Source of the DNA: an uncultured delta proteobacterium
Lineage (GTDB): Bacteria > Desulfobacterota > Binatia > Bin18
Assembly (NCBI GenBank): GCA_963733195.1
Contig: CAVTCR010000001.1
Span: forward strand, 1-64,000
Direction: 5' to 3'
DNA length: 64,000 bases
Made by a program: the position numbers and the translations under genes. The notes under the pieces were generated by a model, which was not told the DNA's origin, made no database searches, and worked only from the letters and a program-made list of their open reading frames with translations. Shown one piece after another: positions 1-36,795 of this stretch; positions within the stretch are counted from its first letter, which is position 1, and every line of letters starts with the position of its first letter.

Positions 1-2065
1 TTGACGGGGAGACCCAGGGCTTTCTTGACGTGCTCAGTGAGAGTGTGGCCAGTGCCCGCCTCCTCCTGCTGGTGAACTACCGGCCGGAGTATCACCCCGA
101 GTGGGGGAGTAAGACGTATTACACGCAGCTGCGGCTCGTGCCCTTAGGGAGAGCGGAAGCCGAAGCACTCCTGACCTTCCTGTTGGGCACCGATGCCAGG
201 CTCACCGCCTTGAAACAGCTGGTGCTGGCGAAGACTGAAGGCACGCCGTTCTTCATAGAAGAGGTGGTGCAGACGTTAGCCGAAGAAGGGGTACTCACCG
301 GGGAACGGGGGCACTACCGGTTAGCGAAAGCCCCGACCGAGATCCATATCTCCCCGACCGTGCAAGGGGTCCTGGCCTCACGGATCGACCGCTTAATGCC
401 CCCAGAGAAAGACTTGCTGCAACAACTGGCGATCATTGGGCGGGAATTTCCGCTGAGCCTGATGCGCCACGTGGTCTCCCAACCCGAGGAGGAACTCTAC
501 CGTCTGTTATCCTCGTTGCAACACAAAGAGTTTCTCTATGAGCAGCCGGCCTTTCCCGAAGTGGAATATATTTTCAAGCATGCCCTGACGCAAGAAGTCG
601 CTTACAACTCAGTGCTGCAAGAGCGACGCAAAGCCTTGCACGAAAAGACAGCACAGGCGGTTGAAGAAGTGTACCGGGATCGACTGGAGGAGTATTACAG
701 TGAGCTCGCTCACCACTACAGTCGGAGTGGGAATACGGGGAAGGCCATTGAGTATTTCCAAAAGGTAAGCCAGCAAGCGGTACAACGGTCTACCTACCCA
801 GAGGCCATCGAGAGTGTTACTAAGGCCCTAGAGCTACTTGCAACGCTGCCTGACACCCCCGCTCGCGTCCGGCAAGAACTTGCACTGCAACTCGACCTGG
901 GCATTTCACTGATGGCGACCAGGGGCTATATCGCCCCAGGTACAGAGAAGGCGTACGCCCGGGCGCTAGAGCTGTGTCAGCAGATAGGGGACCCCCCCCA
1001 ACTCTTTCCTGCGTTGTTCGGGCCGTGGGTGTTTTCTTTAGTCAGGGCGGAGCTCAAGACGGCGCGGAAGTTGGGCGAACAGCTCCTGAGGGTGGCGCAA
1101 ACCGCCCAGGACTCCACCCTCCTCCTGAGGGCTCACGTGTCACTAGGGGGAACTTTGTTTTTCCAGGGAGAGTTTATGCCGGCCTTCGCGCATCTGGAGC
1201 AAGGCCGTACTCTCTACGATAATCTCCATCGGTACCCGCACGCCTTCCTCCACGGGCAAGATCCCGTAGTCACGTGTCCTTCCACTGCCTCCTTAGTCCT
1301 ATGGCACTTAGGCTATCCCGATCGGGCCCTGCAGAGAAGCCAAGAGGCCCTGGCCCTGGCCCAGACGTTATCTCGCCCTTTCAGTCTCGCTCAGACCTTA
1401 GACCGCGCCGCCCTATTCCATCAGCTCCGCCGGGAGGAACGGGCCGTGCAAGAACAAGCCGAAGCTGCCACGGTACTTTGTACAGAGCAGGGATTCACAT
1501 ACTACCTCGCGTGGGGAACCGTCTTGCGGGGTTGGGCCCTGGCAGAGCAGGGCGAAGTCGAGGAAGGATTACCCAGATACACAAAGGATTGGCCGCCTAC
1601 CGAGCCCTGGGAGCAGAGCTATTGCGGCTATATTTTCTTGCCCTCTTAGCTGAGGCGCATGGCAAAGCTGGCCAGCTTGAGTACGGCTTGGCTGCCGTGA
1701 ATGAGGCTCTGACTATGATGAACAAAACCGAGGAGCGATTCTGTGAAGCAGAGCTATACCGGCTCAAGGGAACGCTTACGCTTCAACAGGCAAATCGACG
1801 ATCAACAGGCAGAAATCCACAGCCCAACGGCGAAGAGGCTGAGCGGTGTTTCCTTAAAGCCATCGACATCGCTCGCCACCAACAAGCCAAGTCGCTTGAA
1901 CTCCGTGCGGTGACCAGCCTCGCTCGTCTGTGGCAGAGTCAAGGCAAGCCCTGCGAAGCTCACAGCATGTTGTCCACAATCTACAACTGGTTCACCGAGG
2001 GGTTTGACACCAAAGATTTGCAAGAGGCGAAGGCGCTGTTGGACGAGTTGGCGGGGGGCCGCTGA
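1..2065 (+). CDS. STAND ATPase-TPR protein, array copy 1 (5' part outside window; one frameshift near 1570)
   Basis: ORFs 30..1649 and 1274..2065 give LLLVNYRPEY, TEGTPFFIEE, LASRIDRL, YIFKHALTQEVAY, TPRs and the family C-terminus WFTEGFDTKDLQEAKALLDEL, as in downstream paralogues. Confidence 0.9.
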
Positions 2066-5000
2066 TGGACCTCTATGCGATCAGCGATCAAGTCGTGCGC
2101 TCCTGCAGCAGCGGGGGCGACTAGCCTACCGGATGCTCCAGCTGCAGTTTCAGCTCGATGACGAGCAGCTGGCCGCCCTCAAAGAGGAACTGATTGACAT
2201 CCAGGAGCTGGCGGCTGACAAAGACGGCAAGATGCTCGTCTGGCAGGGTAACCGCAGCGTCGGCTCGGCACCGAGCGAACGCGCGGGTTGTCTTCGTCCA
2301 TCACTCCACCAGCTCCTCCTCCCGCCAGCTATACGCCTCCGCATCTGGCCGAGCGCATTCGCGCCGAGCAAGCGGCGATGGAAGCCCGTGGAGTAGCTGA
2401 CGGTGAGCGCAAGACCATCACCGCGCTGTTTGCCGATCTCAAAGGCTCCACGGCACTGATTGAAGGCTCGATCCCGAAGAAGCGCGGGCGATTATTGATC
2501 CTGCCTTGCAACTGATGATGGACGCCGTGCATCGCTATGAGGGCTATGTGGCGCAAGCCTTGGGCGATGGCATCTTTGCCCTGTTCGGTGCGCCCATTGC
2601 GCATGAAGATCATCCCCAGCGTGCACTCTATGCCGCGCTGCGCATGCAAGAGGAGATGCGCCGCTATGCTGATACGTTGCGCCCAAAAGGGCTATCCGCC
2701 GCTGCTGATGCGCGTCGGGGTGAATACTGGCGAAGTGGTGGTGCGCTCGATTCGCAAAGACGATCTGCATACGGATTACGTGCCGGTGGGCCATTCGACC
2801 AACCTGGCGGCCCGCATGGAGCAGATGGCCGACGCCCGGTGTCGATTCTGGTCACTGCGTACACCCACAAGCTCACGGACGGGCTATTTCGAGTTCAAGG
2901 ATTTGGGCAAGACCCAGATCAAAGGCGTGGAAGAGCCGCTCACCGTCTACGAAGTCCTGGGTGCGGGGCCGCTGCGCACGCGGCTGCAAGTCGCGGCCAC
3001 GGCGCGGCCTGACCCGCTTTGTCGGGCGGCAGAGTGAAATGGAGCAGATGCAGCGAGGCGCTTGGAGCAAGCCAAAGCCGGCCACGGGCAAATTGTGGGC
3101 GTGATGGGCGAGCCGGGCTTAGGCAAGTCACGGCTGTTCTATGAGTTCAAGCTGCTCTCCCAGAGTGGCTGTCTGGTGCTGGAAGCCTACTCGGTCTCGC
3201 ACGGCAAAGCCTCGCCGTATCTGCCGGTGATTGAACTGCTCAAGAGCTACTTTGCAATCAACGCCGCAGATGATGAGCGGAAGCGGCGGGAGAAGGTCGG
3301 CGGCAAAGTGTTGATGCTGGATCGCAGCCTCGAAGACACCCTGCCGTATCTGTTCGCCTTGCTCGGCATCGAAGACCAGCCCTCGCCGTTGCAGCAGATG
3401 GACCCGCAGATTCGCCGCCGGCGGACGTTCGAGGCGCTCAAGAAGCTCTTCCTGCGCGAGAGTCTCAATCAGCCGCTGATCCTGATCTTTGAGGACTTGC
3501 ATTGGATCGATAGCGAGACGCAAGGGTTTCTCGACACGCTGAGTGAAGAGTGTGGCCTCGGCCAAGATCCTGCTGCTGGTGAACTATCGGCCCGAGTATC
3601 GCCACGAGTGGGGACAGAAGACGTACTACACGCAGCTGCGCTTAGCCCCCTTCGGCAAAGCCGAGGCCGAAGAATTCCTCGCTTCTCTGCTCGGCAACGA
3701 CGCCAGCCCTCACATGCCTTAAAGCAGCTTATCCTGGAGAAGACCGAAGGCACGCCGTTCTTCATGGAAGAGGTGGTGCAGAGTTAGCGGAGAAAAGGGG
3801 TGCTCATCGCGCGGCGACGCGGGGCCAATACCGGCTTCGCCTGCAGGCCCGACTGGACTCCACATCTCCCGTCCACCGTGCAAGGGGTGCTTGGCGCTCC
3901 CGCATCGACCGCCTCGCACCGGACGAGAAAGCCTTGCTGCAACAACTCGCGGTCATCGGGCGGGAGTTCCCGCTCAGCCTCGTCCGCCAGGTCATCCCGC
4001 AACCCGAAGAGGAACTCTATCGCCTTCTCTCCTCGCTGCAGCACAAAGAGTTTCTCTACGAGCAGCCCGCGTTTCCCGAAGTCGAGTACAGCTTCAAGCA
4101 TGCCCTGACGCAGGAGGTGGCCTACGACACCGTGCTCCACGAGCGGCGCAAAGCCTTGCACGAGCGCACAGCCCAGGCGATCGAAGCACTCTATCAGCGC
4201 ACAGCTGGACGAGCACTACAGCGACTTGGCGCATCACTACAGCGCAGCGGCAATACGGAGAAAGCCGTCGAGTACCTGCACCTGGCGGGGCAACAGGCGG
4301 TGCAACGCTCGGCCAATGTGGAAGCGATCACGCATCTGACGACTGCCTTAGAGTTGCTCAAGACGTTGCCTGACACTCCCGAGCGCGCCCAACAAGAACT
4401 GACGCTGCACCTCACTCTGGGCGCGCCGTTACAGGCCATCAGAGGTTTTTCCTCCCCGGAAGTGAAAGCGACCTATACCCGCGCCCGGGAGCTGTGCCAG
4501 CAGGTCGGGGAGACCCGCCAGCTCTTCCCGGCCCTCTTTGGGCTGCGGACGTTTCATCATGTCGGGGCGAGTTTCGCGCGGCGCGTGAGCTGGGGAGCAA
4601 CTCCTGATTTGGCCCAGAGGGAGCAAGACCCGGCATTACTCGTGGAGGCCTATCGGGCACTGGGCAGCACCTTATTCCATCTGGGAGAGTTCGGCGCGGC
4701 CCGGGCGCACCTGGAACAGGGCCTTGACCCTGTATGACGCGCAGCGCCACCACTCCCATGCGTTCCTCTACGGCGGATAGAGCCGGGGGTATTTGGCCTC
4801 TCCTCATGCAGCCTGGGTCCTGTGGCATCTGGGCTATCCGGACCAGGCGCTCAAGAAGAGCGATGCCGCATCGTACCCTGGCGCCAAGAGCTGTCTTATC
4901 CATCCAGTTTGGCCGCCGCCCAGGTTTATGCTGCCCTGTCTGTACCAGCTCCGCCAGAAAAGTCTCCTGACCCAAGAGCGGGCTGAGGCAGGAATCACCA

Positions 5001-5578
5001 TCGCTCGCGAGCAAGGCTTTCCCGTGTGGTTAGGGTAGGGACTGTCCTGCAAGGCTGGGCGCTGGCCGAACAGGGACAGAGGAAGAGGGGATTAGCCGAG
5101 ATTCGCCAAGGGCTGGCTGCCTGCCAAGCCATAGGAGCAGGGATAATCAATCCTATTATCTTGCCCTGCTGGCCGAGGCGTATGGGAAAGCGGGGCAGGC
5201 AGAGGAAGGGCTTGCCACGCTCGCCGAGGCGCTGGCGGTGGTAGACAAAAGCTGGGGAGCGGTTTTACGAGGCGGAGCTGTATCGGTTGAAGGGCGAGCT
5301 GACACTCCACAGTCTAGCGTCCCGGGTCTAGAGTCTAGGTCCAGAAAGAAGCTGGAGGAGTGTTTTTGAAGGCCATTGAGATTGCTCGCAAACAGCAAGC
5401 GAAATCGCTGGAACTGCGCGCGATGATGAGCCTTGCGCCGGCTGTGGCAGCAGCAGGCAAGCAGAGAGAAGCACACCAGATGTTGTCCGAGATCTACGGC
5501 TGGTTCACCGAAGGGTTTGACACGAAAGACTTGCAAGAGGCCAAGGCACTGTTAGAAAGTCTAGGGTCTCGTGTCTAG
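2065..5578 (+). CDS. Class III nucleotide cyclase-STAND ATPase-TPR protein, copy 2 (many frameshifts)
   Basis: ATG overlaps the copy 1 stop (TGATG). Fragments give ERKTITALFADLKGST, ALGDGIFALFGAP, Walker A GEPGLGKS, Walker B LIFEDLHWID, TPRs and WFTEGFDTKDLQEAKALL. Confidence 0.88.
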
Positions 5579-5736
5579 AGTCTCGCGCCAAAATGAGGGT
5601 AAAGTTTAACGTTCAATGTGCAACATTACCAACCCCTAGCTCCTAACACTCAAGACCCAGTAGGATTGAGTCATTGACGAATGGTGACGTGGATTTCCTC
5701 AATGAGTACACAACAGAATATGAAAAAGGAGAGACA

Positions 5737-5985
5737 ATGCAGAACGCCTATATTGTGACCGGAACGCTCACAAATGAGCGCACAGTAACGTTAGATGAGG
5801 CGTTGCCCTTAACCGCGACAAAAGTACGGTTGGTGGTAGAACCACTCGTCTCGACGTCTCAACACTCCTATTCCGAGATCGTTGCAGCGATCCGCAAACG
5901 ACAGGCGGCACGCAATCATCAGCCGCCAACCCCGGAAGAGGTCGATAGCTATTTGCAAAGCGAACGGAATAGTTGGGAGGAGTGA
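5737..5985 (+). CDS. Putative antitoxin (VapB-like)
   Basis: 82 aa MQNAYIVTGTLTNERTVTLDEALPL..., AAGGAGAG RBS, 6 nt upstream of a PIN gene. Confidence 0.7.
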   Translation: MQNAYIVTGTLTNERTVTLDEALPLTATKVRLVVEPLVSTSQHSYSEIVAAIRKRQAARNHQPPTPEEVDSYLQSERNSWEE

Positions 5986-5991
5986 CCCGAT

Positions 5992-6453
5992 ATGCGTCTC
6001 TACTTGGATACGGCACCAGTCATCTATGTCGTGGAACAGGTGCTGCCGTTCTTCCCCGTAGTGGACGCACGGCTGTCCGCTTCCGGAATGGTCCTGGTCG
6101 CAAGTGACCTTACGCGGATGGAATGCCGCGTCAAGCCTGTACGGGAGGAGAGGACCGACTTGCTGAAGGACTACGACGATTTCTTCTCGTCTGCGGTAAC
6201 AGAGATCGTCGTATTGTCACGAGAGGTTATCGATCGCGCAACGGAGATTCGCGCACGACATCGGTTCAAAACGCCTGATGCGATCCATCTTGCTGCCGCA
6301 GTCGTGACACACTGTGACGTGTTTCTCACCAACGATCATCGGCTCGACCGCTTTCCTGATATCGCGATATTGAAGTTGTCCAGCCACAACCGCTACCTCC
6401 GCAAGAGACACCGGCAGCAACGTAAAAGGCAGTGCTGGCAGTACAGGCACTAA
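5992..6453 (+). CDS. vapC: PIN-domain VapC toxin
   Basis: LYLDTAPVIY, ECRV, KTPDAIHLAAA, FLTND: the PIN acidic motifs. The C-terminal tail may be extended by an indel. Confidence 0.88.
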   Translation: MRLYLDTAPVIYVVEQVLPFFPVVDARLSASGMVLVASDLTRMECRVKPVREERTDLLKDYDDFFSSAVTEIVVLSREVIDRATEIRARHRFKTPDAIHLAAAVVTHCDVFLTNDHRLDRFPDIAILKLSSHNRYLRKRHRQQRKRQCWQYRH

Positions 6454-6470
6454 AGAACTAAGAGGGACCC

Positions 6471-9400
6471 GTGAAGTTCTCCGAAATCATCGATCAAGCT
6501 TGTGCGCTCCTCCAACGAAAGGGACGCCTGACCTATCGGTCGCTGAAACTCGAATTTGCCCTCGACGACGAATACCTTGATGTTCTGAAAGGAGAACTCA
6601 TCGACGGGCAACGGGTCGCCATTGATGAAGGCGGGAAAGTGTTGGTGTGGGTCGGGAACAAGGATAAGGGGAAAGAGATAAAGGATAAAGGGGGAAACGA
6701 AAAACAGGGCATCGAGGGCGAAAAGGAAGGAGTCCCTAAGCAGTGGACGCCGCCCCATCTCGCTGAGCGGATTCGTGCCACTGAAATCACCGACGGTGAA
6801 CGCAAGACGATCACCGCCTTGTTTGCCGACCTGAAGGGCTCGACTGCCCTGATCGAAGGGCTCGATCCCGAAGAAGCACGGGCGATTATTGATCCCGCGC
6901 TGCAGCTCATGATGGACGCCGTGCATCGGTATGAGGGCTATGTCGCGCAGGCCTTGGGCGATGGCATCTTTGCCTTGTTCGGCGCGCCGATTGCCCATGA
7001 GGATCATCCCCAGCGCGCCTGTATGCCGCGCTGCGCATGCAAGAGGAGATGCGCCGCTATGGGGATCAGGTGCGCCTCAAACACGGCGTACCACTTGGCG
7101 ATGCGCGTCGGGCGTGAACACCGGCGAAGTGGTGGTGCGCTCGATTCGCAAAGAGGATTTACATACGGACTATGTGCCAGTGGGCCATTCGACGAACCTA
7201 GCCGCCCGCATGGAGCAGATGGCCACGCCGGGCTCGATACTGGTCACGGAGTACACCCACAAACTGACGAAGGCTATTTCGAGTTCAAAGCGTTAGGCGA
7301 GGCGCAGATCAAAGGGGTGGAAGAGCCGCTCACGCGTCTATGAAGTCCTGGGCGCGGGGCCGTTACGCACGCGGCTGCAAGTGGCGGCCACGCGCGGGGC
7401 TGACGCGGTTTGTCGGGCGGCAGAGTGAGATGGAGCAGATGCAGCGAGCCTTGGAGCAAGCCAAAGCTGGGCACGGGCAGATCGTGGGCGTGATGGGCGA
7501 GCCGGGGTTGGGCAAGTCGCGGCTGTTCTACGAGTTCAAGCTCCTCTCGCAAGTGGCTGTCTGGTGCTGGAAGCCTATTCGGTCTCGCACGGCAAAGCGT
7601 CACCGTATCTGCCGGTGATCGAGCTGCTCAAGAGTTACTTTCGAGATTCAAGCCGCAAGATGATGAACGGACACGCCGAGAGAAGGTCGCCGGCAAAGTG
7701 CTAATGCTCGACCGAGCCTGGAGGACACGCTGCCCTATCTTTTGCCTTGCTGGGCATTGAGGAGCGCCTCGCCACTTCCAGCAGATGGACCCGCAGATTC
7801 GCCGCCGGCGGACGTTCGAGGCGCTCAAGAAGCTGTTCCTCCGCGAGAGTCTCAACCAACCGCTGATCCTGATCTTTGAGGACCTGCACTGGATCGACAC
7901 TGAGACGCAAGGATTTCTCGACACGCTGAGTGAGAGTGTGGCCAGCGCACGATTCTGCTGCTGATCGAACTACCGCCCGGAGTATCGGCACGAGTGGGGA
8001 CAGAAGACCTACTACACCCAACTACGCTTAGCCCCATTCGGCAAAGCGGAAGCGGAAGAATTCTCGACGTTCTCTGCTTGGGCAACGACGCCGAGCCTCA
8101 CAGGCCTTGAAACACCTCATCTTGGAGAAGACCGAAGGGACGCCGTTCTTCATGGAAGAGGTGGTGCAGACGTTGGCTGAGGAGGGAGTACTGGACGGCG
8201 AACGGGGCAACTATCGGCTGGAGCAACGCGCCAACCGACTTGCACATCTCTCCCACCGTGCAAGGGGTACTCGCGGCGCGGATCGACCGCCTGCGCCCGA
8301 AGAGAAAGCCCTCCTGCAACAACTGGCGGTCATCGGCCGGGAGTTTCCGCTGAGCCTCGTACGGCAGGTGGTCCCGCAACCCGAAGAGGAACTCTATCGC
8401 CTGCTCGCCTCGCTCCAGCAGCAAAGAGTTTCTCTACGAACAGCCGGCGTTCCCCGAAGTGGAGTACATCTTCAAGCACGCCCTGACCCAGGAGGTGGCC
8501 TACAGCACGGTGCTGCAGGAGCGACGAAAGCCTTACACGAGCGCACGGCCAAGCGATCGAAGCGCTGTACAGCGCCACGCCTGAGGAGCACTACAGCGAG
8601 CTGGCGCATCACTACAGCCGCAGTGGCAACACCGAGAAAGCCGTGGAGTACCTCGACCTGGCGGGCAACAGGCGGTGCAACGCTCGGCCAATGTGGAAGC
8701 GATCACTCATCTGACCACCGCCTTAGAGCTGCTCAACACTTGCCCGACACCCGCGAGCGCGCCCAACAAGAACTCACGCTGCACCTCGCTCTGGGCGTCG
8801 CCGTTACAGGCCACCAGAGGGGTTTCCTCGCCGGAAGTGAAAGCTACCTATACCCGGGCCCTGGAGCTGTGCCAGCAGGTGGGGGAACCCCCGCTCTTTC
8901 CGGTCTCTGTGGGGCTGCGGCGTTTCATCTTGCGCGCGGCAGAACTCGCAAACGGCGCAAGACTGGCCGAGCAATGCTGCGACTTGGCCCGGAGGGGCGC
9001 ACGAATCCAGCCCTCCTCCTGGAGGCCCATCTGGCGCTGGGGGAACTTGTTCTATCTGGGAGAATTGCGGCTCGGCCGCAGAGCATCTGGAGCAAGGGAT
9101 TGCGCTCTATGATCTCCAGCAACACCGCGACTGCAGGCCTTTCATTCGAGGACACGATCTGGAGGTCATTGGCCTGTGCTATGGCAGCATGGTCGCTGTG
9201 GCGTCTGGGCTATCCGGACCAGGCCCTGAAAAAGAATGCAAGACACGCTTGCACTCGGCCCAGGAGATCGTCTCATCCTCTTACGCTTGGCTTTGCCCTC
9301 GCCTTTGCTGCGTATGTCTACAGTTCCTGCGGAGAGAGGCATGATCCCAGAGAGCGGGCAGAAGTGGGCATTACGCTCTGCGACCGAGCACGGGTTTCCC

Positions 9401-9949
9401 GTATTGGTAGCGCAAGGAATTTCTCGGGGCTGGGTACTCGCTGCAACAAGGCCAGCAGGAAGAAGGGATTGCACAGATACGACAAGGTTTGGCCGCTTCC
9501 ACAGACGACCTGGGTTCAGAATTGGACCGATCCATATTATCTGGCGCTGCTGGCCGAGACCTATGGGAAGCTGGACGAGCCAGAGAGGGCTGCGCAGCTC
9601 GCTGAGGCGCTAGCTGGTCAGAAGAACCGGAGAGCGTTTTACGAGGCAGAGCTGTATCGGCTCAAGAGGCGAGCTGACGCTCCAAAGTCCAAAGTCCAAG
9701 CGTCCAAAGTCTGAAGCATCCAAAAGAAGCGGAGGAGTGTTTTCTGGAGGCTATTGAGATTGCCCGCCAGCAACAGGCGAAGTCGCTGGAGCTGCGCGCA
9801 GACGATGAGCCTCGCCCGACTGTGGCAACAGCAGGGCAAGACAGCAAGAAGCACACCAGATGTTAGCCGAGATCTACGGCTGGTTCACCGAAGGCTTTGA
9901 CACCAAGGACCTGCAGGAGGCGCAGGCGTTGCTTGGAGAATTAAGATAA
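6471..9949 (+). CDS. Class III nucleotide cyclase-STAND ATPase-TPR protein, copy 3 (many frameshifts)
   Basis: MKFSEIIDQACALLQRKGRLTY N-domain, cyclase motifs, GEPGLGKS, TPRs; ends ...DLQEAQALLGELR TAA at 9947-9949. Confidence 0.88.
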
Positions 9950-9992
9950 CAATAACCCTGGCTCTCTGAGAAGATACGGAAGGATCTATGTT

Positions 9993-10256
9993 ATGAAAAC
10001 AGTGAAAGCAGTCCAAGCGGTTCGGCAACGTGTACGCGTGAGTCGTGACCGACGAATCGAAATCAGAGCGGTTCCCTTTCAGCCTGGTAGTGAAGTCGAC
10101 GTCATCGTCGTTGGGGGAGACATCCCAACGGAGGAAACAACAAAAGAGGATATTTACAGCTACACTGAACGGCTGAAAAAGAACAAAAAACTGCCACATT
10201 ACTCGCTACGTGAGATTGAGGAGATTGTTCATCAGAGCCGGGGACTCCGTGGCTAA
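9993..10256 (+). CDS. Putative antitoxin
   Basis: 87 aa with a beta-rich N-terminus (IEIRAVPFQPGSEVDVIVV), overlapping a downstream PIN gene. Confidence 0.65.
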   Translation: MKTVKAVQAVRQRVRVSRDRRIEIRAVPFQPGSEVDVIVVGGDIPTEETTKEDIYSYTERLKKNKKLPHYSLREIEEIVHQSRGLRG

Positions 10257-10665
10257 GCGGATAGTCTGCGATACGAATGTGCTGATTTCCGGCTACCTGT
10301 GGAAAGGAGCCACTCGACACGTGCTCGATTTGGTACGCAATGGGCAACAGTGGACGTTGCTGAGTTCGTCGGACACCATGAACGAGTTCATTCGGGTGCT
10401 CGCTTACCAAAAATTTGGTCTAACCCCAATAGAGATCGAACCCTTGGTTGCAGATTTGCGCCAGCACAGTATTTTTGTCCAGGTACGGTCAAAACTCCAT
10501 ATTATCCAGAACGATCCAACGGACAATATTTTTCTTAACCTTGCGGTTGATGGCAAAGCCGAGCTGTTGGTCTCCGGTGATCGCCATCTCTTGGACCTCA
10601 AAGCCTTTCGCGGTCTGCCAATTGTGAGTGTGCGGTCTTTTCTGCGCATCGTGGTGGTTTCGTGA
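10249..10665 (+). CDS. PIN-family toxin (MJ1680/TIGR00305-like subfamily)
   Basis: GTG start; RIVCDTNVLISG ... DPTDNIFLNLAVDGKAELLVSGDRHLLDL. Confidence 0.87.
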   Translation: MAKRIVCDTNVLISGYLWKGATRHVLDLVRNGQQWTLLSSSDTMNEFIRVLAYQKFGLTPIEIEPLVADLRQHSIFVQVRSKLHIIQNDPTDNIFLNLAVDGKAELLVSGDRHLLDLKAFRGLPIVSVRSFLRIVVVS

Positions 10666-10701
10666 GAAAGGCAAAGACCTTCAGCGCTGAGGAGGAAGTG
10701 C

Positions 10702-13700
10702 ATGCGCTGCCCGAGTTGCGAGTTTGACAGCCCTGAGGGGAAGAAATTTTGTGGCGAGTGTGGCGCGCCATTACCGCGACGGTGCTCCAGCTGTGGGGAA
10801 TCTAACCCTCCACAGTTCAAATTTTGTGGCGAGTGTGGCACACCTCTAGTTTCGAGTCCCGAGCCCCGTATTCCGCGTTCTCCTCGCCCTTCGGCGCCGG
10901 ACCCGAAGCCCCCCGTCGGTTATACACCACCGCACCTCGCAGAACGCATTCGCGCAGAGCAAGCGGCATTAGAAGCGCGTGGTGCGACTGATGGTGAGCG
11001 TAAGACGATCACGGCCTTGTTTGCCGATCTCAAAGGCTCCACGGCGTTCATTGAAGGCCTCGATCCCGAAGAAGCGCGGGCGATTATCGATCCGGCCCTG
11101 CAACTCATGATGGACGCCGTGCATCGCTATGAAGGCTATGTGGCGCAAGCGTTGGGGGACGGCATCTTTGCCCTGTTCGGCGCACCGATTGCCCATGAGG
11201 ATCATCCGCAACGCGCCCTCTATGCCGCCCTGCGCATGCAGGAGGAAATGGGACGCTATTCAGACACCCTGCGCCAGAAAGGATATCCTCCGCTGCTCAT
11301 GCGGGTCGGCGTGAACACCGGAGAGGTGGTGGTGCGCTCGATTCGTAAGGATGACCTGCATACTGACTACGTGCCGGTGGGCCACTCGACTAATCTCGCC
11401 GCGCGGATGGAACAATTGGCGGCTCCTGGCTCGATTCTCATCACCGCTTACACCCATCGTCTTACCGAGGGCTATTTTGCATTCAAAGACCTGGGCAAGA
11501 CACAGATCAAAGGGGTGGAAGAGCCGCTGAACATCTATGAAGTCCTGGGGGTTGGCCCACTGCGTACACGGTTACAAGTCGCGGCGGGGCGGGGATTGAC
11601 CCGCTTTGTCGGACGGCAGAGGGAAATGGAGCAGATGCAGCAAGCGCTGGCACAAACCCAAACCGGGCACGGGCAAATTGTCGGAGTGATGGGCGAGCCG
11701 GGCTTAGGCAAGTCGCGCTTGTTCTACGAGTTCAAACTCTTCTGTCAAAGCGCTTGCCTGGTGATCGAGGCCTACTCGGTCTCGTATGGCAAGGCCTCGC
11801 CATATTTGCCGGTGATCGAGCTACTCAAGAGTTACTTTGACATCACTCTCCAGGATGAAGAGCGCAAACGGCGCGAGAAGGTGACCGGGAAAGTGTTGAG
11901 CTTGGATCGCAGCTTGGAAGAGGTCCTCCCGTATCTCTTTGCACTCCTAGGCATCAACGACCCCCAATCGAGTTTGCAACAGATGGACCCACAGATTCGG
12001 CGGCGGCGGACGTTCGAGGCACTCAAGAAGCTCTTCCTCAGAGAGAGTCTCAATCAACCGCTCATCCTCATCTTTGAGGATCTGCATTGGATCGATAGTG
12101 AGACGCAAGGGTTTCTCGACATGCTGAGTGAGAGTGTGGCCTCGGCGAAAATCCTGCTGCTGGTGAACTACCGTCCGGAGTATCGCCATGAGTGGGGACA
12201 GAAGACGTATTACACCCAGCTCCGCTTGTCACCGTTTGGCAAAGCCGAAGCCGAAGAATTTCTTGATGTGTTGTTGGGACGCCCGTAGGGGCAGGCCACG
12301 TGCCTGCCCCGCAGGCGCCCATACGGACGCCCCTACAGGACCTCAAACGCTATCTGGCGAAGACCGAAGGCACGCCGTTCTTCATGGAAGAGGTTGTCCA
12401 GGAGTTGGTTGAACAGGGCGTGCTTAGTGCGCGACGGCGTAGGGGCACGGCATGCTGTGCCCCTACCTCACAACTGCGCCTGCATATCCCGACCACCGTG
12501 CAAGGCGTGTTAGCCGCCCGCATCGACCGTCTCGCTCCCGAGGAGAAAACCCTGCTGCAGCAACTAGCGGTCATCGGCCGGGAGTTTCCCGCTGAGCCTG
12601 GTCCGCCAGGTGATCGCCCAGCCGGAAGACGAACTCTATCGCCTCCTCGCCTCGCTCCAGCGCAAAGAGTTTCTCTATGAGCAGCCGGCGTTTCCCGAGT
12701 CCGACTATATCTTCAAGCATGCCCTGACCCAGGAGGTGGCCTACGGCACGGTGCTGCAGGAGCGACGCAAAGCCTACATGAGCGCACGGCGCAGGCCATG
12801 GAAGCCCTCTACCGCGCCACCCTGGACGAGCACTACAGCGACCTGGCGCATCACTACACCCGCAGTGGCAAGACGGAGAAAGCTGTCGAGTACCTGCACC
12901 TAGCCGGGCAACAGGCGGTGCAACGCTCGGCCAATGTGGAAGCGATCACGCATCTGACGACCGCCTTAGAGCTGCTCAACACGTTGCCCGACACCCGCGA
13001 GCGCGCCCAACAAGAACTCACGCTGCACCTCACGTCTGGGCGTGCCGTTACAGGCCACCAGAGGTTTTTCCTCGCCGGAAGTGAGAGCGACCTATACCCG
13101 CGCCCGGGAGCTGTGCCAGCAGGTCGGGGAGACCCGCCAGCTCTTCCCGGTCCTCTTTGGGCTGCGGACGTTTCATCATGTGCGGGGCGAGTTTCTCACG
13201 GCGCGCGAGCTGGGGGAGCAACTCCTGGGCCTGGCCCAGCGGGAGCACGACCCGGCCTTGCTCATGGAGGCATATCGGGCGCTGGGCAGCACCTTATTCC
13301 ATCTGGGTGAGTTCGGCGCGGCCCAGGCGCACCTGGAGCAGGGCCTGACCCTGTATGACGCTCAGCGCCACCACTCCCATGTGTTCCTCTACGGCGGCAT
13401 AGAGCCGGGGGTCTTTGGCCTCTCCTATGCAGCCTTGGTCCTGTGGCATCTGGGCTATCCGGACCAGGCGCTCCAGAAGAGCGAGTGCAGCGCGTACCCT
13501 GGCCCAAGAGCTGTCTTATCCATATCAGCTTGGCCGGCGCCCGGGTTTTTGCTGCCCATGTTGCACCAGCTCCGCCGGGAAAGAGCACCTGACCCAAGAG
13601 TGGGCCGAGGCAGGCATCACCCTCGCGCGCGAGCAAGGATTTCCAGCAGTGGTTAGGGCAAGGGACTGTCCTGCAGGGCTGGGCGCTGGCCGAACAGGGA

Positions 13701-14261
13701 CAGAGTTGAAGAGGGGATTACCCAGATCCGCCAAGGCCTGGCCACCTGCCAAGCCGTAGGGGCAGGGATATTTCAATCCTATTATCTTGCCCTGCTGGCC
13801 GAGGCGTATGGGAAAGCGGGGCAGGCAGAGGAAGGGCTGGCCGCACTCGCTGAGGCGCTGGCGGTGGTGGACAAAAGCGGTGAGCGGTTTTACGAGGCGG
13901 AGCTGTATCGGCTAAGGGCGAGCTGACGTTGCAAAAGTTGTCAGTCGTCAGTGTCTCAGTTGTCAGTCCAAGCACCCAACCCCTAGTCACCTAGCACCCA
14001 AGCCGAAGCTGAAGCGTGCTTTCTCAAGGCAATAGAAATTTCCCAAGACAGCAAGCGAAATCGCTGGAACTGCGGGCGGTGATGAGCCTGTCCGCCTGCG
14101 ACAAACGTAAGTGGCTCTACGAATCACGCAACACGGAGCAGGAACGCAAGAAGCTCGACGAAGCTCACCAGATGTTATCCGAGATCTACAACTGGTTCAC
14201 CGAAGGCTTTGACACCAAGGACCTGCAAGAGGCGCAGACGTTGCTGGAAGAGCTGGCGTGA
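10702..14261 (+). CDS. Double zinc ribbon-class III cyclase-STAND ATPase-TPR protein, copy 4 (frameshifts in 3' half)
   Basis: CPSC..FCGECG..CSSCG..FCGECG, then an unbroken cyclase and Walker A/B in ORF 10702..12288; TPR fragments; WFTEGFDTKDLQEAQTLLEELA. Confidence 0.9.
12285..12336. repeat. GTAG-type REP-like palindrome inside copy 4
   Basis: GTAGGGGCAGGC-CACGT-GCCTGCCCC ... GCCCCTAC. Confidence 0.7.
12439..12466. repeat. GTAG-type REP-like palindrome inside copy 4
   Basis: GTAGGGGCACGGCATGCTGTGCCCCTAC hairpin. Confidence 0.75.
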
Positions 14262-14271
14262 AGAGAGGGTT

Positions 14272-14595
14272 ATGAGTCCACAAGATTCTGCGCTTTTCCC
14301 GGTCTTAACGCCTTTAGGATTCTCTATCCGGACGACCCCGGATTATTGGGCGCTGATCGAAGCGAAACATCCCAAGCTCCGTGGACGAATATCGGACGTG
14401 GTGCAGGTGCTACGCGTCCCTGAGGAGATTCGCCGCAGCCAACAGGATCCTACCGTATATTTGTTCTACCGTGCGGATCAGCGTCGCTACCTTTGCGCTG
14501 TTGTCAAACGTATCAACGGAGAGGGCTTTCTTATTACTGCCTATCCCTGCGATAAGATCAAAGAAGGAGATGTCATATGGCCCAAGTCAAAGTGA
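14272..14595 (+). CDS. Putative toxin, DUF4258/BECR-fold RNase-like
   Basis: 107 aa W..I..KHP...PEEIRRSQQDPTVYLFY...LCAVVKR.NGEGFLITAY, overlapping a DUF2283-like gene. Confidence 0.7.
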   Translation: MSPQDSALFPVLTPLGFSIRTTPDYWALIEAKHPKLRGRISDVVQVLRVPEEIRRSQQDPTVYLFYRADQRRYLCAVVKRINGEGFLITAYPCDKIKEGDVIWPKSK

Positions 14596-14792
14596 TCCAT
14601 GACCCCGTAGGCGAGACCCTCACGGTGTACTGGGACGATCCAGAACGTGAAGAAGTGTGTGAGGAGATTGGTGATGGTCTGATTTTGATCAAAGATGCGC
14701 AGGGAGAAGTCATTGGGTTTGAGCGGTTATATTTCAAGTCCAAGACCCCTGCTCATGAACTAGGAGTCGTGCTCCAAACGGCAAAGCCGTAG
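14577..14792 (+). CDS. DUF2283-like putative antitoxin
   Basis: VKVIHDPVGETLTVYW...EEIGDGLILIKDAQGEVIGFERL pattern. Confidence 0.75.
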   Translation: MAQVKVIHDPVGETLTVYWDDPEREEVCEEIGDGLILIKDAQGEVIGFERLYFKSKTPAHELGVVLQTAKP

Positions 14793-14881
14793 GAGACGAG
14801 CGCTGCCACCGCTGTCGGTGAGACTGGTCACAAATCGATGAACGAGGGAAAAGAGTTCTGAACCGACGGGGAGGAGTAGGA

Positions 14882-17800
14882 GTGAAATTTTCGGAGACCC
14901 TTGAACAAGCAAGTGACCTCCTTCAGAGAAAGGGACGCCTCTCTTATCGCGCCCTGAAGTTAGAGTTTGATCTCAGTGAGGAACAGCTGGAGGCGCTCAA
15001 GGAGGAATTGATCGATGTCCAAGAACTGGCAGTAGACAAAGATGGCAGGATGTTAGTATGGATCGGCAACGCTGAGGAGGATAAGGGAAAAAGGAGAACG
15101 GAGAAAGGGAGAAAAGAAGTATCGGAGAACGGGAAAACGAGAGAACCGGCGACTCCCACCCCACCTCCAGCGAGTTACACCCCCAGTCATTTAGCCGAAC
15201 GCATTCGTGCTGCGGTAATTACAGAGGATGAGCGCAAAACCATCACAGCGCTCTTTGCTGACTCAAAGGTTCGACGGCGCTGATCGAAGGACTCGACCCC
15301 GAAGAGGCTCGAGCGATTATTGATCCGGCCTTGCAGCTGATGATGGACGCCGTGCATCGCTATGAGGGCTACGTCGCGCAAGTGTTGGGCGATGGGATCT
15401 TTGCCCTGTTCGGGGCACCGATTGCCCACGAGGATCACCCCCAACGGGCGGTGTATGCCGCGTTACGCATGCAGGACGAGATGCGCCGCTACGGGGATCA
15501 GATCCGCCTCAAGCACGGCGTACCACTGGCAATGCGCGTCGGCATCAATACCGGTGAGGTTGTTGTGCGTTCGATTCGCAAAGAGGATTTACACACGGAT
15601 TATGTCCCGGTTGGCCATTCCACGAACTTGGCCGCGCGGATGGAACAAATGGCCACGCCGGGGTCGATTCTGATCACGGAGTATACGCGGAAATCAGTCG
15701 AAGGCTATTTCGAGTTGAAAGCCTTGGGCGCAGCAGAGATCAAAGGGGTCGAAGCGCCACTCAATGTGTATGAAGTACAAGGTGCAGGACTGCTGCGCAC
15801 ACGGTTGCAAGTATCAGCAACGCGGCGGGGACTGACCCGCTTTGTCGGGCGCCAGCGGGAAATGGAACAACTCCGCCGCGTGGACGCAAGCCAAAGTCGG
15901 TCACGGACAAATCGTGGGCGTGATGGGCGAGCCGGGCTGGGCAAGTCACGGCTGTTCTACGAGTTCAAATCACTGTCACAAGTTGGCTGTCTCATCCTGG
16001 AGGCCTACTCGGTCTCGCACGGCAAAGCGACGGCGTACCTGCCAGTGATTGAACTAGTGAAGAGTTACTTTCGCATCGAGCCGCAGGACGACGAGCGAAA
16101 ACGGCGGGAGAAAATCAGGGGAAGGTACTGACGCTGGACCGCAGCTTGGAAGACACGCTACCCTATCTGTTTGCCTTGCTCGGGATTGAAGAACAACCCT
16201 CACCCCTACAGCAAATGGACCCGCAGATTCGCCGGCGGACGCACGTTCGAGGCGCTCAAGAAGCTCTTCCTGCGGGAAAGTCTCAAGCAACCGCTGATGC
16301 TCATCTTTGAAGATTTGCATTGGATCGATAGTGAGACACAGGGCTTTCTCGACACGCTGAGTGAGGGCATAGCTTCAGCGAGGATTCTCCTCCTGGTGAA
16401 CTATCGTCCCGAATACCGCCATGAGTGGGGGCAGAAGACATATTACACCCAACTCCGGCTCGCCCCCTTTGGGAAGGAAGAGGCCGAGGAATTCCTCGAC
16501 GAACTGCTCGGGACGACCGGAGGGGCCCAGCATGCTGCGCCCCTACACACGCTCAAACAACTCATCCTCGGCAAGACCGAAGGCACGCCGTTCTTCATGG
16601 AAGAAGTCGTGCAAACCCTCGTGGAAGACGGCACGCTGACCGGGGATCGTGGACACTATGCACTGCAGTCGCAGCCAGTGACCACGTTACAACTGCCCAG
16701 GACGGTCCACGGCGTATTGGCGGCGCGCATTGATCGTCTTGCTCCCGACGAGAAAGCGTTGCTCCAACAGCTCTCGTTATTGGCCGTGAGTTTGCGCTGG
16801 GACTCATCCGCCAGGTTCTTCCGCAGTCCGAAGAGGAACTGTATCGGCTCTTGTCTGCGCTGCAGCGCAAGGAATTTCTCTACGAGCAGCCCGCGTTCCC
16901 AGAGGTCGAGTACCATTTCAAGCATGCGCTGACCCAGGAGGTGGCCTACGGGTCGGTACTCCAGGAGCGGCGTAAAGTCTTACACGAGCGGACCGCCCAA
17001 GCGATCGAGCAGCTCTCTCACGATCGGTTAGACGAGCACTACAGTGACTTGGCATATCACTACACACGCAGCGGCAATACGGAGAAGGCGATCGAATACC
17101 TCCAGCGTGCCGGGCAACAGTCGGTGCAGCGCTCGGCCAATGCCGAAGCAGTCAGTCACTTTACGACAGCGTTGGAACTGCTCAAAACTTTCCCCAACAC
17201 TGTGGCGCGTGCCCGCCAGGAGCTGACCTTGCAGACTACCCTAGGCACGGCTCTGAGTGCCACGCAAGGCTTCGGCGCCCCAGAAAGGGAACACGCCTTC
17301 CATCGGGCACGAGAACTCTGTCAACAGATTGGCGAGACTCCTCAGCTCTTCCCTGTCCTCTGGGGGTTCTGTCAGTCCCATATAACCCAAGGGAAGTTCC
17401 AGAGAGCGCGTGAGGAGGCAGAGCAGCTTCTGCATCTATCCCGGCGTGCACAGGACCCGGTGCTCCTCTTAGGAGCACACGAAGTGCTAGGAGAGACCTT
17501 GTTCTGGTCTGGAGAGTTGACCCTGGCCTTAGAGCACTTTGAGCAAGGCAGTGCCTTCTATGATCCCCGACAACACCGTGCCCTGGTCTCCCTCTATGGG
17601 ATAGACCTCGGGGTACTTTGCCAAGGCCTTGCGGCTTGGACCTTGTGGCTGCTGGGCTATCCGGACCGGGCACAGAAAAGGAGCCACGAGGCGCTCAGCA
17701 TGGTCCGGGAGCTGGCTCACCCTCATAGTTTAGTTATTGCTTTGTACTTTGCTTCCTTGTCCCACCAGTTGCGCCAGAGAGGCACAACTGACTCAAGAGC

Positions 17801-18403
17801 ATGCAGAGATGCAGCTGACGCTGACGAACGAGCACGGATTTCCAGAGTGGTCGGCGCAGGGCACTATCCTGCGGGGCTGGGCGTTAGCCGAGCAGGGACA
17901 AGGAGAGGAAGGCGTTGCGCAGATGCGCCAAGGCCTAGCTGCCTACCAGGCCACGGGATCAGAGCTGGCACGGGCGCAATATCTGGCCCTGCTGGCCGAG
18001 GCGTATGAGAGAATGGGGCAGCCAGAGGAGAGGCTCAGCACGCTGGCCGAGGCGTTGGCAGTGGTGGACAGAACTGGGGAGCGGTACTGGGAGGCAGAGC
18101 TGTATCGACTCAAGGGAGAACTCCTGCTGGCGCAGGAAGGCTACAGGCTACAGGCTGAAGGCTTAAGGGAGAAAACAGAAGAAGCGGGAAGAGTGCTTTT
18201 TACGAGCGATTGCCATTGCGCAAACGCAACAAGCCAAATCGTTGGAGCTACGCGCGGCCACCAGCCTCGCCCGTCTCTGGCAGCAGCAGGAGAAGAAAGA
18301 CGAAGCTCACAAACTGTTGTCTGATGTCTACCTCTGGTTCACCGAGGGCTTTGACACCAAAGACCTGCAAGAGGCAAAAGTGTTGTTAGAGGAATTACAC
18401 TGA
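14882..18403 (+). CDS. Class III nucleotide cyclase-STAND ATPase-TPR protein, copy 5 (frameshifts)
   Basis: MKFSETLEQASDLLQRKGRLSY N-domain, cyclase, ATPase and TPR fragments; ends ...LLEELH TGA at 18401-18403. Confidence 0.88.
16519..16546. repeat. REP-like palindrome in frame in copy 5
   Basis: GGAGGGGCCCAGCATGCTGCGCCCCTAC, similar to the 12439 element; reads GGAQHAAPL. Confidence 0.65.
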
Positions 18404-19018
18404 AGCAAAAACCGTCATTCACGAGCATCGCTGTCTGCTGCTATTTACACACCATCTGGGAAGATCTCCCACAATGTGGAGCTATGTAGTGACTACTAAT
18501 TTATTTCTGGCCCTTTCACGGGGTTGCCAACGGAACGCCCACGTCGCATGCTTCGGTTATCTCAAGGGTGGTGTTCTAGATATGGTGACGACGGTTCGCA
18601 AGCTATTGATTCTTTAGAACTTTAGAAGGCGCATATCCACATCTAGAACACCACCAGCGTTCCGGCTCCACTCCTCGCAGGGGAAGCCACCGAGTGACAC
18701 ACATCCGAGTATAGCGTCTGAGCAGCAACCCGTACCGCTCCCTGCTGCGCGTTTCATCCAGAGCTGTCACCAAGTATACGCCCTGCCCCAGGTATGGAAG
18801 TGGTGGAGCGCGAAAGATAGCACGACGTGGAGATACCAGAAGGTGAATATCATCATGGTGATAGCTCCCTTCCTGTCCGAGTGTTGAGCAGTGCATTGTC
18901 AGTCTCGCTCAGTGGCTGGTGCCCCGGACTGGTCTCTGCTTCGCTCTCGCTTGATTGCGCGGCGGAGAAGAGCAGGGCGTACGCAAGACTGAGGAGCACG
19001 AGCGGCAACAGCACATCA

Positions 19019-24800: not shown

Positions 24801-24958
24801 AAGCGGCTCTATCCGAATCACGCAACACGGATCACGGATTACGCACTAAACTCAACGAAGCTCACCAGATGTTATCCGAGATCTACAATTGGTTCACCGA
24901 AGGGTTTGACACCAAAGATTTGCAAGAGGCGAAAGCATTGTTGGAGGAGTTAGCCTGA
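21841..24958 (+). CDS. Winged-helix-STAND ATPase-TPR regulator (frameshifts)
   Basis: AFGPFRV..VLAYLVQHPGRVI..YIETVGRQGYRF, GEPGIGKTT, LEDLQWSD, TPRs, and the same WFTEGFDTKDLQEAKALLEELA end as the cyclase array. Confidence 0.85.
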
Positions 24959-29441: not shown

Positions 29442-30488
29442 CTAGCATATCATCTCCTTCCACACCCTATGCATCACCTTTAGTGCCTCATCAATGTCCT
29501 TCGACGTAATTCCATAATGCGTCACAGCGCGGAAACGTCCGCCGCCAATGTCTCCGACTTTGACACCTTCGCGAGCAAGAACTTGTGCGAATGATGGACC
29601 TTCGGGCAGTGGGTTCTGCGGTCCAAAAATCACCAGGTTCGTTTGTACAGTATCAAGATCGAGACGCATTCCTGGCAGATCAACCAAGCCTTCGGCTAAT
29701 TGGCGAGCCGTCTGATGATCTTCAGCCAAACGTTCGACCATCTCCGTCAGCGCAACAATACCTGCCGCCGCAATAATGCCCGCTTGGCGCATCCCACCAC
29801 CAACCATTTTGCGGAGGCGGCGGGCTCGGGCAATGAAATCTTTGCGTCCACACACCAGCGAGCCAACCGGAGCCGACAAACCTTTCGAGAGACAGAACTG
29901 TACTGAATCCACACTCTTAGTGAACTCGCGTACATCACATTGCAACGCGACAGCTGCGTTAAAGATGCGGGAGCCGTCGAGATGCACAGGCACTCCAGCA
30001 TTATCGGCGATCGCTTTCACCTCACGCAGGTACGCCGGGGAAGGATCGTTCCACCACAGCGGTTATGTGTACTCTCTACGCAGATCACACCCGGTGGCGC
30101 GTAATGGATGTCGCTCGCAGCTGGACGAACCGCGTGCCGCAGTTCCGTCAAGTGGAAGTTCACCGAACCGACCGGTAGAAACTGGATGCAGTACGATGCC
30201 GCCAAGGGCTGACGCCCCGCCAGCTTCATAATTGTAGATATGCGAGTTATCGCCTAGAATCGCTTCGTCACCGCGACGGCAATGGGCCAGGAGGGCGAGT
30301 AGATTCCCCATCGTTCCACTCACTCCGAGCAAGGCAGCCTCTGTGCCCATCATTTCTGCCGCTAATGCTTCTAGATGATTGACCGTCGGATCTTCACCCA
30401 TCACATCATCACCGAGTTCCGCACGATACATTGCTTCACGCATCGCTGGACTTGGTAACGTTACAGTATCGCTACGTAAATCGATCAT
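29442..30488 (-). CDS. ltaE: Low-specificity L-threonine aldolase (frameshifts)
   Basis: [48 protein letters not shown]. Confidence 0.9.
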
Positions 30489-36691: not shown

Positions 36692-36696
36692 TAGCC

Positions 36697-36795
36697 ACCT
36701 AACGCTCGCGGTCACCGCGAGCTGCCCAAATGCGGCCTTTCACATGTATTCCAAACCGCAATAGGGCAGCGATGCGGTGGCGCGAAAGGTTAGCC
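36697..36795 (-). mobile_element. attC site
   Basis: Minus strand GGCTAAC CTTTCGCGCCACCGCATCGCTGCCC ... GGGCAGCTCGCGGTGACCGCGAGC GTTAGGT; the vapC stop lies in R''. Confidence 0.82.

Follow-up and report, generated by a model that had tools for sequence, protein, structure and literature searches.

Toxin–antitoxin-type gene pairs behind the 3' ends of a large cyclase/STAND gene family in an uncultured member of the Binatia

Why should small toxin–antitoxin (TA) gene pairs lie between large signalling genes? The question is raised by the first 64 kb (64,000 nucleotides, hereafter the window) of contig CAVTCR010000001.1 (C1) from an uncultured member of the Binatia (assembly GCA_963733195.1, here G000; 6.95 Mb in 87 contigs, completeness 93%, contamination 4.5%). 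This stretch opens, at positions 1–18403, with five head-to-tail genes on the plus strand that belong to one family, characterised by a class III cyclase domain, an AAA_16 STAND ATPase, tetratricopeptide repeats (TPR) and the C-terminal tail WFTEGFDTKDLQEA, and three of the four junctions between them each contain a different TA-like pair. An initial annotation, made from the DNA letters alone, offered two explanations: that the TA cassettes guard a recombination-prone array whose conserved gene ends act as homology arms for cassette exchange, or that the locus is a defence system linking sensor cyclases to RNase effectors. Here we find that TA-type genes stand directly beside members of this family throughout the genome, and behind them in related metagenome-assembled genomes (MAGs; the other genomes named below are G005, G011, G016, G018 and G066), and suggest that the conserved 3' end of the family genes may be what brings them there.

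TA modules are mobile, yet little is understood of their routes or of what decides their landing places. The initial annotation knew of no account of this architecture, and our literature search, which did return papers on conflict systems, likewise found no description either of such a family expansion in the Binatia or of TA cassettes behind STAND cyclase genes, a result on which supplementary gene tables could still bear. Passages of PMC7159879 refer to cyclic nucleoside monophosphate (cNMP) cyclases as well as to a DUF397 TA link, without describing this architecture; those of the genome paper (PMC8262859) contain no toxins or paralogues, use the word cyclase once, for a pigment enzyme, and name no cyclase signalling genes.

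Five family genes and their junctions

The tail motif WFTEGFDTKDLQEA occurs six times on the plus strand of the window (1988, 5501, 9881, 14193, 18335 and 24890), and the first five occurrences close genes of the cyclase type, as identified by Pfam matches (Guanylate_cyc, AAA_16, TPR) on the pieces upstream, so that the five co-oriented, tail-sharing paralogues of the initial annotation are confirmed. In order along the plus strand, the array and its junction genes are as follows.

<1..2065, plus strand: family gene 1, 3' part only, the contig beginning inside the gene; STAND arm, TPR and tail; one frame change at about 1570–1650
2065..5578, plus strand: family gene 2; N-terminal domain of about 60 amino acids (aa), cyclase, AAA_16, TPR and tail; at least six frame changes
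5674..5985, plus strand: putative antitoxin of junction 2/3 (likely ATG at 5737, 82 aa), on the basis of size and position; no family match
5992..6453, plus strand: PIN-domain (VapC-like) toxin of junction 2/3; PF01850, E = 5.5e-11; intact frame
6471..9949, plus strand: family gene 3; GTG start 17 nucleotides (nt) past the PIN stop; several frame changes
9993..10256, plus strand: an 87-aa putative antitoxin (junction 3/4) that shares 47 nt with the start of the toxin gene; unmatched by any family
10210..10665, plus strand: PIN_3/TIGR00305 toxin of junction 3/4; PF13470, E = 2e-13; intact frame
10702..14261, plus strand: family gene 4; double zinc ribbon, cyclase and AAA_16 (528 aa open), then an indel-rich TPR part
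14272..14595, plus strand: DUF4258-like gene in the toxin position of junction 4/5, 107 aa, starting 10 nt past the gene 4 stop
14577..14792, plus strand: DUF2283 partner gene of junction 4/5, 71 aa; PF10049, E = 2.8e-5; overlaps the DUF4258-like gene by 19 nt
14882..18403, plus strand: family gene 5; GTG start; at least four frame changes

Junction 1/2 is a one-base TGA/ATG overlap (TGATG, 2063–2067) with the gene 2 ATG lying on the gene 1 stop, exactly as first described. Junctions 2/3, 3/4 and 4/5 span 892, 752 and 620 nt, respectively, and each is filled by two small open reading frames (ORFs) on the same strand, separated from their neighbours by spacers of 10–96 nt; the presence of a single two-gene module in each therefore also stands.

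The identities given to these modules hold in part. Assignments to PIN, PIN_3/TIGR00305 and DUF2283 lie above the respective cut-offs, securely for the junction 3/4 toxin (TIGR00305, E = 1.1e-17, with 64.3 bits where the cut-off is 29.15) and just above for the DUF2283 gene (24.6 bits, cut-off 23), whereas the DUF4258-like gene falls below its own (PF14076, 16.6 bits, cut-off 25) and neither of the upstream putative antitoxins (5674/5737–5985 and 9993–10256) was matched by any Pfam, NCBIfam or PADLOC model. Four acidic residues of the junction 2/3 toxin (5992–6453) appear to stand where the PIN motif would have them. Homologues of the DUF4258-like ORF are found at six loci (63–83% aa identity) and those of the DUF2283 ORF in five other genomes (87–93%); the two are kept as a pair, both in those five genomes and in a paralogous copy on contig C71, beside another family 3' end. 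The upstream ORFs are antitoxin-like in size, position and overlap and are conserved alongside the toxin in G018 (73.5% aa identity at the same position for junction 2/3 and 90.8% for junction 3/4); an Atlas look-up for the junction 2/3 ORF returned a weak match to an AF2212-like cluster (0.81), which serves as a lead only. We accordingly refer to the junction modules as TA-like, of the type II kind: two contain recognisable toxins, and their partners are presumed antitoxins by virtue of position.

Consistent with the initial annotation, which saw no attC site, insertion sequence (IS) or integrase here, the spacers contain no attC-like inverted repeat and the junctions have no room for an IS or integrase gene; a search of positions 1–26000 found no Rfam family. 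No plus-strand terminator-like site was found in any junction, and sigma-70-like promoters and terminators over 1–19500 are rarer than in shuffled sequence, and hence uninformative. Segmental duplication of TA-bearing junctions is ruled out as the origin of the arrangement, since none of the window's cassettes has a second DNA-level copy anywhere in the genome.

TA-type genes beside family members in this genome and its relatives

The five array genes represent a much larger family. A tblastn search with 14 intact members as queries assigns 539,148 nt, or 7.8% of the genome, to family sequence, in 172 merged intervals of which 115 contain a cyclase, 34 a winged helix-turn-helix (wHTH) domain of the Trans_reg_C type instead, one both and 24 neither; the tail motif occurs 154 times. 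The conserved 3'-terminal stretch is present in more than 100 copies per genome, with 75–90% identity between genomes.

Seven toxin-type Pfam families (PIN, PIN_3, DUF2283, ParE, PemK, HicA and DUF4258) were searched for genome-wide, and 74 non-redundant matches above cut-off were kept. Random placement would put 3.2 of these within 1 kb of a family interval; 23 are found there (7.2-fold), while at 1–5 kb the count is close to expectation (12 against 9.8, ratio 1.2) and farther out the ratio drops below 1. The excess does not depend upon the three junctions that raised the question: without them, 20 of 71 matches remain within 1 kb (binomial P = 1.3e-11) and, in a comparison with 2000 random placements that averaged 2.19 and never exceeded 9, 16 of 50 do so. 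Recombinases show no such adjacency, with none of 21 tyrosine and none of five serine recombinase domain matches within 1 kb of a family interval and five of the 26 within 3 kb. A general island effect can be ruled out on these grounds, i.e. the lack of enrichment at 1–5 kb and of adjacent recombinases, and the adjacency of TA genes to this family is beyond chance.

The position is also oriented. Nineteen of the 23 adjacent toxin matches (83%) are encoded on the same strand as the family gene; five lie between two family genes (three on C1, one each on C55 and C81), and the remaining 18 adjoin a single family gene, 15 at its 3' end and three at its 5' end. At least ten unrelated TA families occupy the position behind family genes.

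Related genomes follow the same rule. Among 80 loci from about 15 other MAGs there are 45 family 3' ends, 43 of which have at least 500 nt downstream, and the 95 small ORFs in these 43 flanks match 22 Pfam families, almost all of them TA components: HEPN three times; DUF4258, HigB, PIN and MqsA twice each; and PIN_3, TumE, HicA, UPF0150, DUF433, PhdYefM, PSK_trans_fac and NTP_transf_2 once each. At least 12 of these matches are of toxin type, from seven families. As a control, 99 non-family 3' flanks in the same loci contain 138 small ORFs that match 37 families; the 25 that are listed are ordinary metabolic ones and include no TA toxin family. TA enrichment in the flanks, which the initial annotation had proposed to test, is thus seen both in the source genome and in these 43 flanks. 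Since TA pairs stand behind intact family genes in the relatives (DUF6883/DUF4926 in G011, DUF4258/MqsA-like in G016, antitoxin/PIN_3 in G018), the rule is independent of the faulty assembly of G000 described below. Several of the first downstream ORFs in these genomes start between −3 and +4 from the end of the family stop codon.

The cassettes themselves are mobile. That of junction 3/4 is found in two of 55 family genomes, G000 and G018, which belong to different genera; between these it aligns without gaps at 84–92% identity, compared with about 50–55% for the upstream family gene, and homology stops at the toxin stop codon. The junction 2/3 cassette is present in G018 at 87% identity, again between two family genes, the upstream one of which finds its best G000 matches in other paralogues. 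Two of the window's cassettes are thus seen again in another genus, 87–89% identical in nucleotide sequence and preceded by family genes that are not orthologous. The junction 4/5 pair is 84–87% identical in G066 and G011, whereas the rpoB region of other genera, that of G011 included, is 73–75% identical; in G011 the pair sits between metabolic genes with only a 21-aa remnant of the family tail in front of it. None of the three cassettes occurs in the two genomes of the same genus. On G018 contig C140 what comes after the PIN_3 cassette is a further small ORF (IGEFWDTHDL...) that appears antitoxin-like, rather than a family gene, an arrangement that suggests stacked cassettes.

How the cassettes may reach the gene ends

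The reading that we favour, with a probability somewhat below one half (about 0.45), is that the conserved 3' terminus of the family acts as a recombination anchor, or landing pad, for small cassettes, among which addictive ones persist. It is favoured because TA genes adjoin the family and do so only next door, with a bias to the 3' end and the same strand, because the TA types are so varied, and because the cassettes are mobile, with a patchy distribution and mosaic boundaries. In the mechanism we propose, the family's conserved 3'-terminal stretch would provide the homology at which a short cassette could enter, either by a single-crossover (Campbell-type) insertion or by homology-facilitated illegitimate insertion; in tandem arrays, a double crossover could make use of the conserved 5' part of the next gene. 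TA cassettes would then survive later deletion by addiction and so accumulate, a tandem array would come to hold a different TA pair in each junction, and if the array were thereby shielded from deletion between neighbours, that would be incidental.

Candidate signatures of such insertions are present at five places in G000 (C71, positions 2047–3061, and C59, C84, C81 and C11), where an insert of 0.5–1.5 kb behind a family stop codon is followed by a 60–162 nt duplicate of the family 3' terminus with 74–94% identity. Three of the five inserts hold TA-type genes, one a DUF385-like gene, and one an SDR gene with a GST-like gene. Furthermore, the identity profiles of some paralogous G000 loci are mosaic, with peaks of 95–96% straddling the family stop codons. 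The first explanation in the initial annotation is thereby divided: a role of the gene ends in cassette exchange finds support in the recurrence across genera, the mosaic 3' ends and the five duplicated termini, whereas TA genes as guards of a tandem array do not, only five of 23 being flanked by family genes on both sides, and array guarding may be a side effect.

A number of observations weigh against insertion at the family 3' terminus. The duplicated termini are rare (five of about 148 ends), vary in length and identity, and in two of the five cases enclose metabolic rather than TA genes; the three junctions of the window lack them altogether, local alignment scores being those of shuffled sequence, and a single isolated tail remnant was found in the relatives' 80 loci. 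At three examined loci in another genus the junction 4/5 pair has no family neighbour, and the control flanks leave 12 of their 37 families unlisted. Finally, the tight spacing, the starts at or overlapping the family stop, the 83% co-orientation and the lack of plus-strand terminators fit a selected operon at least equally well.

A bolder version of this reading would regard the family 3' terminus as a dispersed gene-capture platform, integron-like but without attC or IntI. Recombination at the tail-coding sequence would admit short cassettes, chiefly TA pairs; read-through from the sensor gene would express them, and they would be exchanged between paralogues and between Binatia genera. We put this forward tentatively, as possible though on the unlikely side.

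Next in rank, and doubtful in our view, is that the arrangement is a functional operon in which the TA genes are co-transcribed with, and serve, the upstream STAND gene, the toxin acting as growth-arrest effector or regulatory brake within a new signalling or defence module. Co-orientation of 19 of the 23 matches, 3'-end placement of 15 of the 18 one-sided ones, spacers of 10–96 nt in the window and the −3 to +4 starts in relatives are what such an operon would produce, as is a junction free of plus-strand terminator-like sites, and the cyclase resembles Pycsar cyclases at the domain level. Against it stand at least ten unrelated TA families in the same position, small proteins in which Pfam detects no cNMP-binding or sensor-coupling domain, and the patchiness of the cassettes among close relatives, none of the three being found within the genus. 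The junction 4/5 pair is also found at places without a family gene, just 23 of the 172 intervals lie near any of the seven toxin types that were searched for, and a wHTH output is driven by the same chassis. PADLOC 2.0 matched the cyclase domain alone (PycC models, about 50 bits); it recognised none of the six small proteins, nor did a STAND defence model match. With this PADLOC result, the wHTH-output sisters and such varied TA families, the second explanation of the initial annotation, a sensor-cyclase/RNase-effector defence locus, likewise gains no support, although it may still apply.

TA cassettes stabilise superintegron arrays, and the pairs could in the same way be retained because they guard the family loci: recombination between paralogues would delete an antitoxin and kill the cell, so that TA-bearing junctions and flanks would outlast others. 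The substrate for such recombination exists, with more than 40 family copies sharing 80–90% DNA identity over long stretches, and five TA matches do lie between two family genes, an arrangement seen again in a family–TA–family junction of G018. Guarding nevertheless appears improbable as the main cause, as 18 of the 23 adjacent matches have a family gene on one side only, neither the 3'-end bias nor the co-orientation is predicted by it, and there are tight junctions without any cassette, namely junction 1/2 and several more.

Alternatively, the cassettes could be what remains of site-specific elements that used the tail-coding sequence as attB, brought in a replacement gene end and then decayed, leaving the addictive TA genes in place. 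The duplicated termini flanking inserts, and the G011 pair with its 21-aa tail remnant at a foreign site, might be accommodated in this way. Also in keeping with it, at C1:67644 a frame-broken gene for a large serine recombinase, with Zn_ribbon_recom and Recombinase domains (positions 3644–6400 of G000:C1:64001-71478), converges on a family 3' end, and loci on C3 and C35 share this junction at 95–96% identity. Three findings make this origin quite unlikely: recombinase matches are absent within 1 kb of family intervals (0 of 26, with five within 3 kb), the variable lengths of the duplicates do not suggest one fixed crossover core, and there is no conserved non-coding site behind the stop codons, 33 of 147 flanks resembling another, mostly through the next family gene or duplicate contigs.

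That the pattern is an artefact, whether of misassembled dispersed paralogues or of two abundant gene classes that happen to share variable regions, is very improbable: the assembly is error-prone, contig ends fall within family genes (that at the start of the window, for one), some contig pairs are 95–99% identical and no sequencing run contains more than 0.12 of the sampled words, but short contigs from four soil or rhizosphere runs bridge four gene–cassette boundaries, G018 contigs independently carry the family–TA and family–TA–family arrangements, and the enrichment is confined to 1 kb or less and absent for recombinases and for non-family genes of the same loci.

Frame breaks, neighbouring features and known systems

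Not reported in the initial annotation are that all five array genes are broken in frame, that the pattern extends genome-wide, and that a wHTH-type tail gene and a minus-strand wHTH gene lie beyond the array. None of the five is an open frame in the assembly (the largest pieces are of 548, 535 and 528 aa), and tblastn with an intact genomic member recovers each as a chain of pieces in changing frames, e.g. residues 490–1010 of gene 1 in frame 3 and residues 1012–1208 in frame 2. Compared with its intact G005 homologue, gene 4 contains 11 one-base insertions and one one-base deletion between 12424 and 13706, with none in the first 1.5 kb. An alternative genetic code, or recoding of the in-frame TAG stops in gene 4, was considered and rejected, as the stretches between stops run out of frame and then back in, and one-base indels are seen against the intact homologue.

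We consider these breaks to be most probably assembly errors rather than pseudogenisation, because ordinary genes are broken too and the relatives' homologues are intact. In rpoB the Rpb2_6 domain is split (pieces of 680, 589 and 197 aa) and rpoC is in two pieces (665 and 659 aa); four relatives lack three one-base indels present in 4.5 kb of this region; frame switches affect 15 of 104 well-matched non-family genes of at least 300 aa (0.14 per kb, against 0.29 per kb in the best-matching family loci). A beta-eliminating lyase ORF of the window (29442–30020, minus strand), which covers only profile positions 155–284 of 288, likewise lies outside the family and is truncated, as assembly indels would lead one to expect. 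Six of the 154 tail motifs in the genome end a frame of at least 900 aa and 148 lie in short frames; in relatives, the family homologues are open frames of 994–1203 aa at eight of nine loci, the ninth, in a genome of the same genus, containing one break. We conclude that the assembly has indel errors throughout and that the breaks are uninformative about function. Family-specific pseudogenisation, or a mutator targeted to repeats, is largely ruled out by the same broken rpoB, rpoC and ordinary genes.

The window copies contain an excess of indels. At about 1–4 indels per kb they exceed both the non-family rate and the family average, and the six TA ORFs between the broken copies are intact; both points count against assembly error as the whole explanation, and real decay of these particular copies is therefore possible. 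Soil contigs exist without the extra bases at 13034, 13587, 13646 and 13704/13706, but as these derive from relatives or paralogues they do not distinguish error from mutation.

Concerning the layout of the array, the initial annotation had named misassembly, or TA adjacency at background level, as what would undo its reading. The adjacency is above background, and the boundaries are partly bridged, in four of six cases (gene 3–antitoxin, PIN gene–gene 4, gene 4–DUF4258-like gene and DUF2283 gene–gene 5), by the short contigs from the four soil or rhizosphere runs. Elsewhere in G000, stretches of several kb are 95–99% identical between contigs (C3/C44 and C3/C35/C1) or inverted within one (C48/C48), and could stem from strain duplicates within the bin or from recent duplication of segments.

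Other features in and beyond the array are listed below.

12285–12310 and 12439–12466, plus strand, in gene 4: GC-rich palindromes GTAGGGGCA...TGCCCC, the first at a frame change and at the site of 23 inserted nt compared with the G005 homologue
18404–19018, non-coding, past gene 5: 19-nt inverted repeat, 95% complementary (18567–18585 / 18637–18655); the first 65 nt or so of the stretch resemble sequence behind family stop codons on C22, C11 and C81
19019..21063, minus strand: wHTH sister gene; Trans_reg_C and AAA_16 STAND in two frames, without the TPR/tail part
21860..24958, plus strand: sixth tail-bearing gene; wHTH (Trans_reg_C-like), AAA_16, TPR and the same C-terminal tail; about five frame changes; not of the cyclase type
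35944–41000, variable stretch: IS4/5-type transposase (35944–36612), PIN gene (36841–37161, minus strand), Y2_Tnp transposase fragment (39244–39813) and broken tyrosine recombinase match (40696–40947)

Palindromes of the GTAGGGGCA...TGCCCC type number 14 in the genome; six lie within family intervals, four of these 1.6–2.0 kb from the gene start, and they may be elements resembling repetitive extragenic palindromes (REP-like) inside coding sequence.

In gene 4 Pfam detects the double zinc ribbon (DZR, E = 9e-12), Guanylate_cyc (E = 4.6e-21) and AAA_16 (E = 1.3e-20), and the class III cyclase profile PF00211 scores 75.7 bits there and 66.9 bits in gene 5 (curated cut-off 21.9). The cyclase translation of gene 4 contains FADLKGST and GDG motifs, while the canonical Lys/Asp pair appears to be Gln/His. 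The STAND architecture is evident from AAA_16 (75 bits, cut-off 32.6) followed by TPR_12, TPR_2 and TPR_MalT matches, with GEPGLGKS and an hhhhDD-type segment visible in the gene 4 translation.

Several known proteins share parts of this body. The cyclase–AAA–TPR region aligns to TIGR03903, the TOMM kinase/cyclase fusion, over profile positions 279–1266 of 1267 (E = 1e-112 to 1e-141), but at 376–472 bits it falls below the equivalog cut-off of 705.75, it lacks the N-terminal kinase, and no TOMM genes were seen nearby; proteins of the Rv0386 type, with cyclase and ATPase parts, are presumably comparable to the family body. MalT/AfsR-type STAND regulators share the AAA_16 and TPR chassis, wHTH sisters and weak AfsR and TPR_MalT matches, although here the main output is a nucleotidyl cyclase and no known regulator comes near the roughly 150 copies per genome. 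TA modules cluster with defence genes, and the class III-like cyclase domain (PycC, about 50 bits) and STAND sensor logic recall Pycsar and Avs systems; unlike these, the family has no cNMP-binding effector gene and no Avs/STAND model match in PADLOC, and the enrichment is next-door rather than island-wide. We infer that a chassis with either a cyclase or a DNA-binding output resembles a MalT/AfsR-type signalling switch more than a known abortive-infection sensor.

For the cassettes, the closest known kinds are the TA cassettes of superintegrons and orphan toxin–immunity cassettes, from both of which the present case differs in its platform and in lacking their defining parts. Superintegrons similarly contain many different small, co-oriented TA modules in a repetitive array, and these are thought to persist by addiction and to stabilise it. 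In contrast, here no integrase adjoins the loci and there is no single platform, the sites being more than 100 protein-coding gene ends; nor was any attC-like repeat found in the spacers or any tyrosine recombinase match within 1 kb of a family interval, as an integron would have. The likeness to polymorphic toxin loci (Rhs/CdiA) lies in a conserved gene part followed by variable two-gene toxin/protector cassettes that are exchanged by recombination, with displaced fragments of the conserved part downstream; the differences are that the toxin here is not fused to the large protein, that the families are those of intracellular type II TA systems, and that the large protein is a cytoplasmic STAND signalling protein.

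With about 115 cyclase-type copies in an uncultured soil lineage, this may be one of the largest nucleotidyl cyclase/STAND expansions in any bacterium. The apparent pseudogenisation of the whole window array, most probably an assembly artefact, calls for caution. A single genome presents some 150 equivalent candidate landing sites, used by no fewer than ten TA families, and its relatives provide natural replicates with intact genes, such that the route of insertion, the role of a coding end as anchor, and selfish persistence as opposed to benefit to the host all become directly testable.

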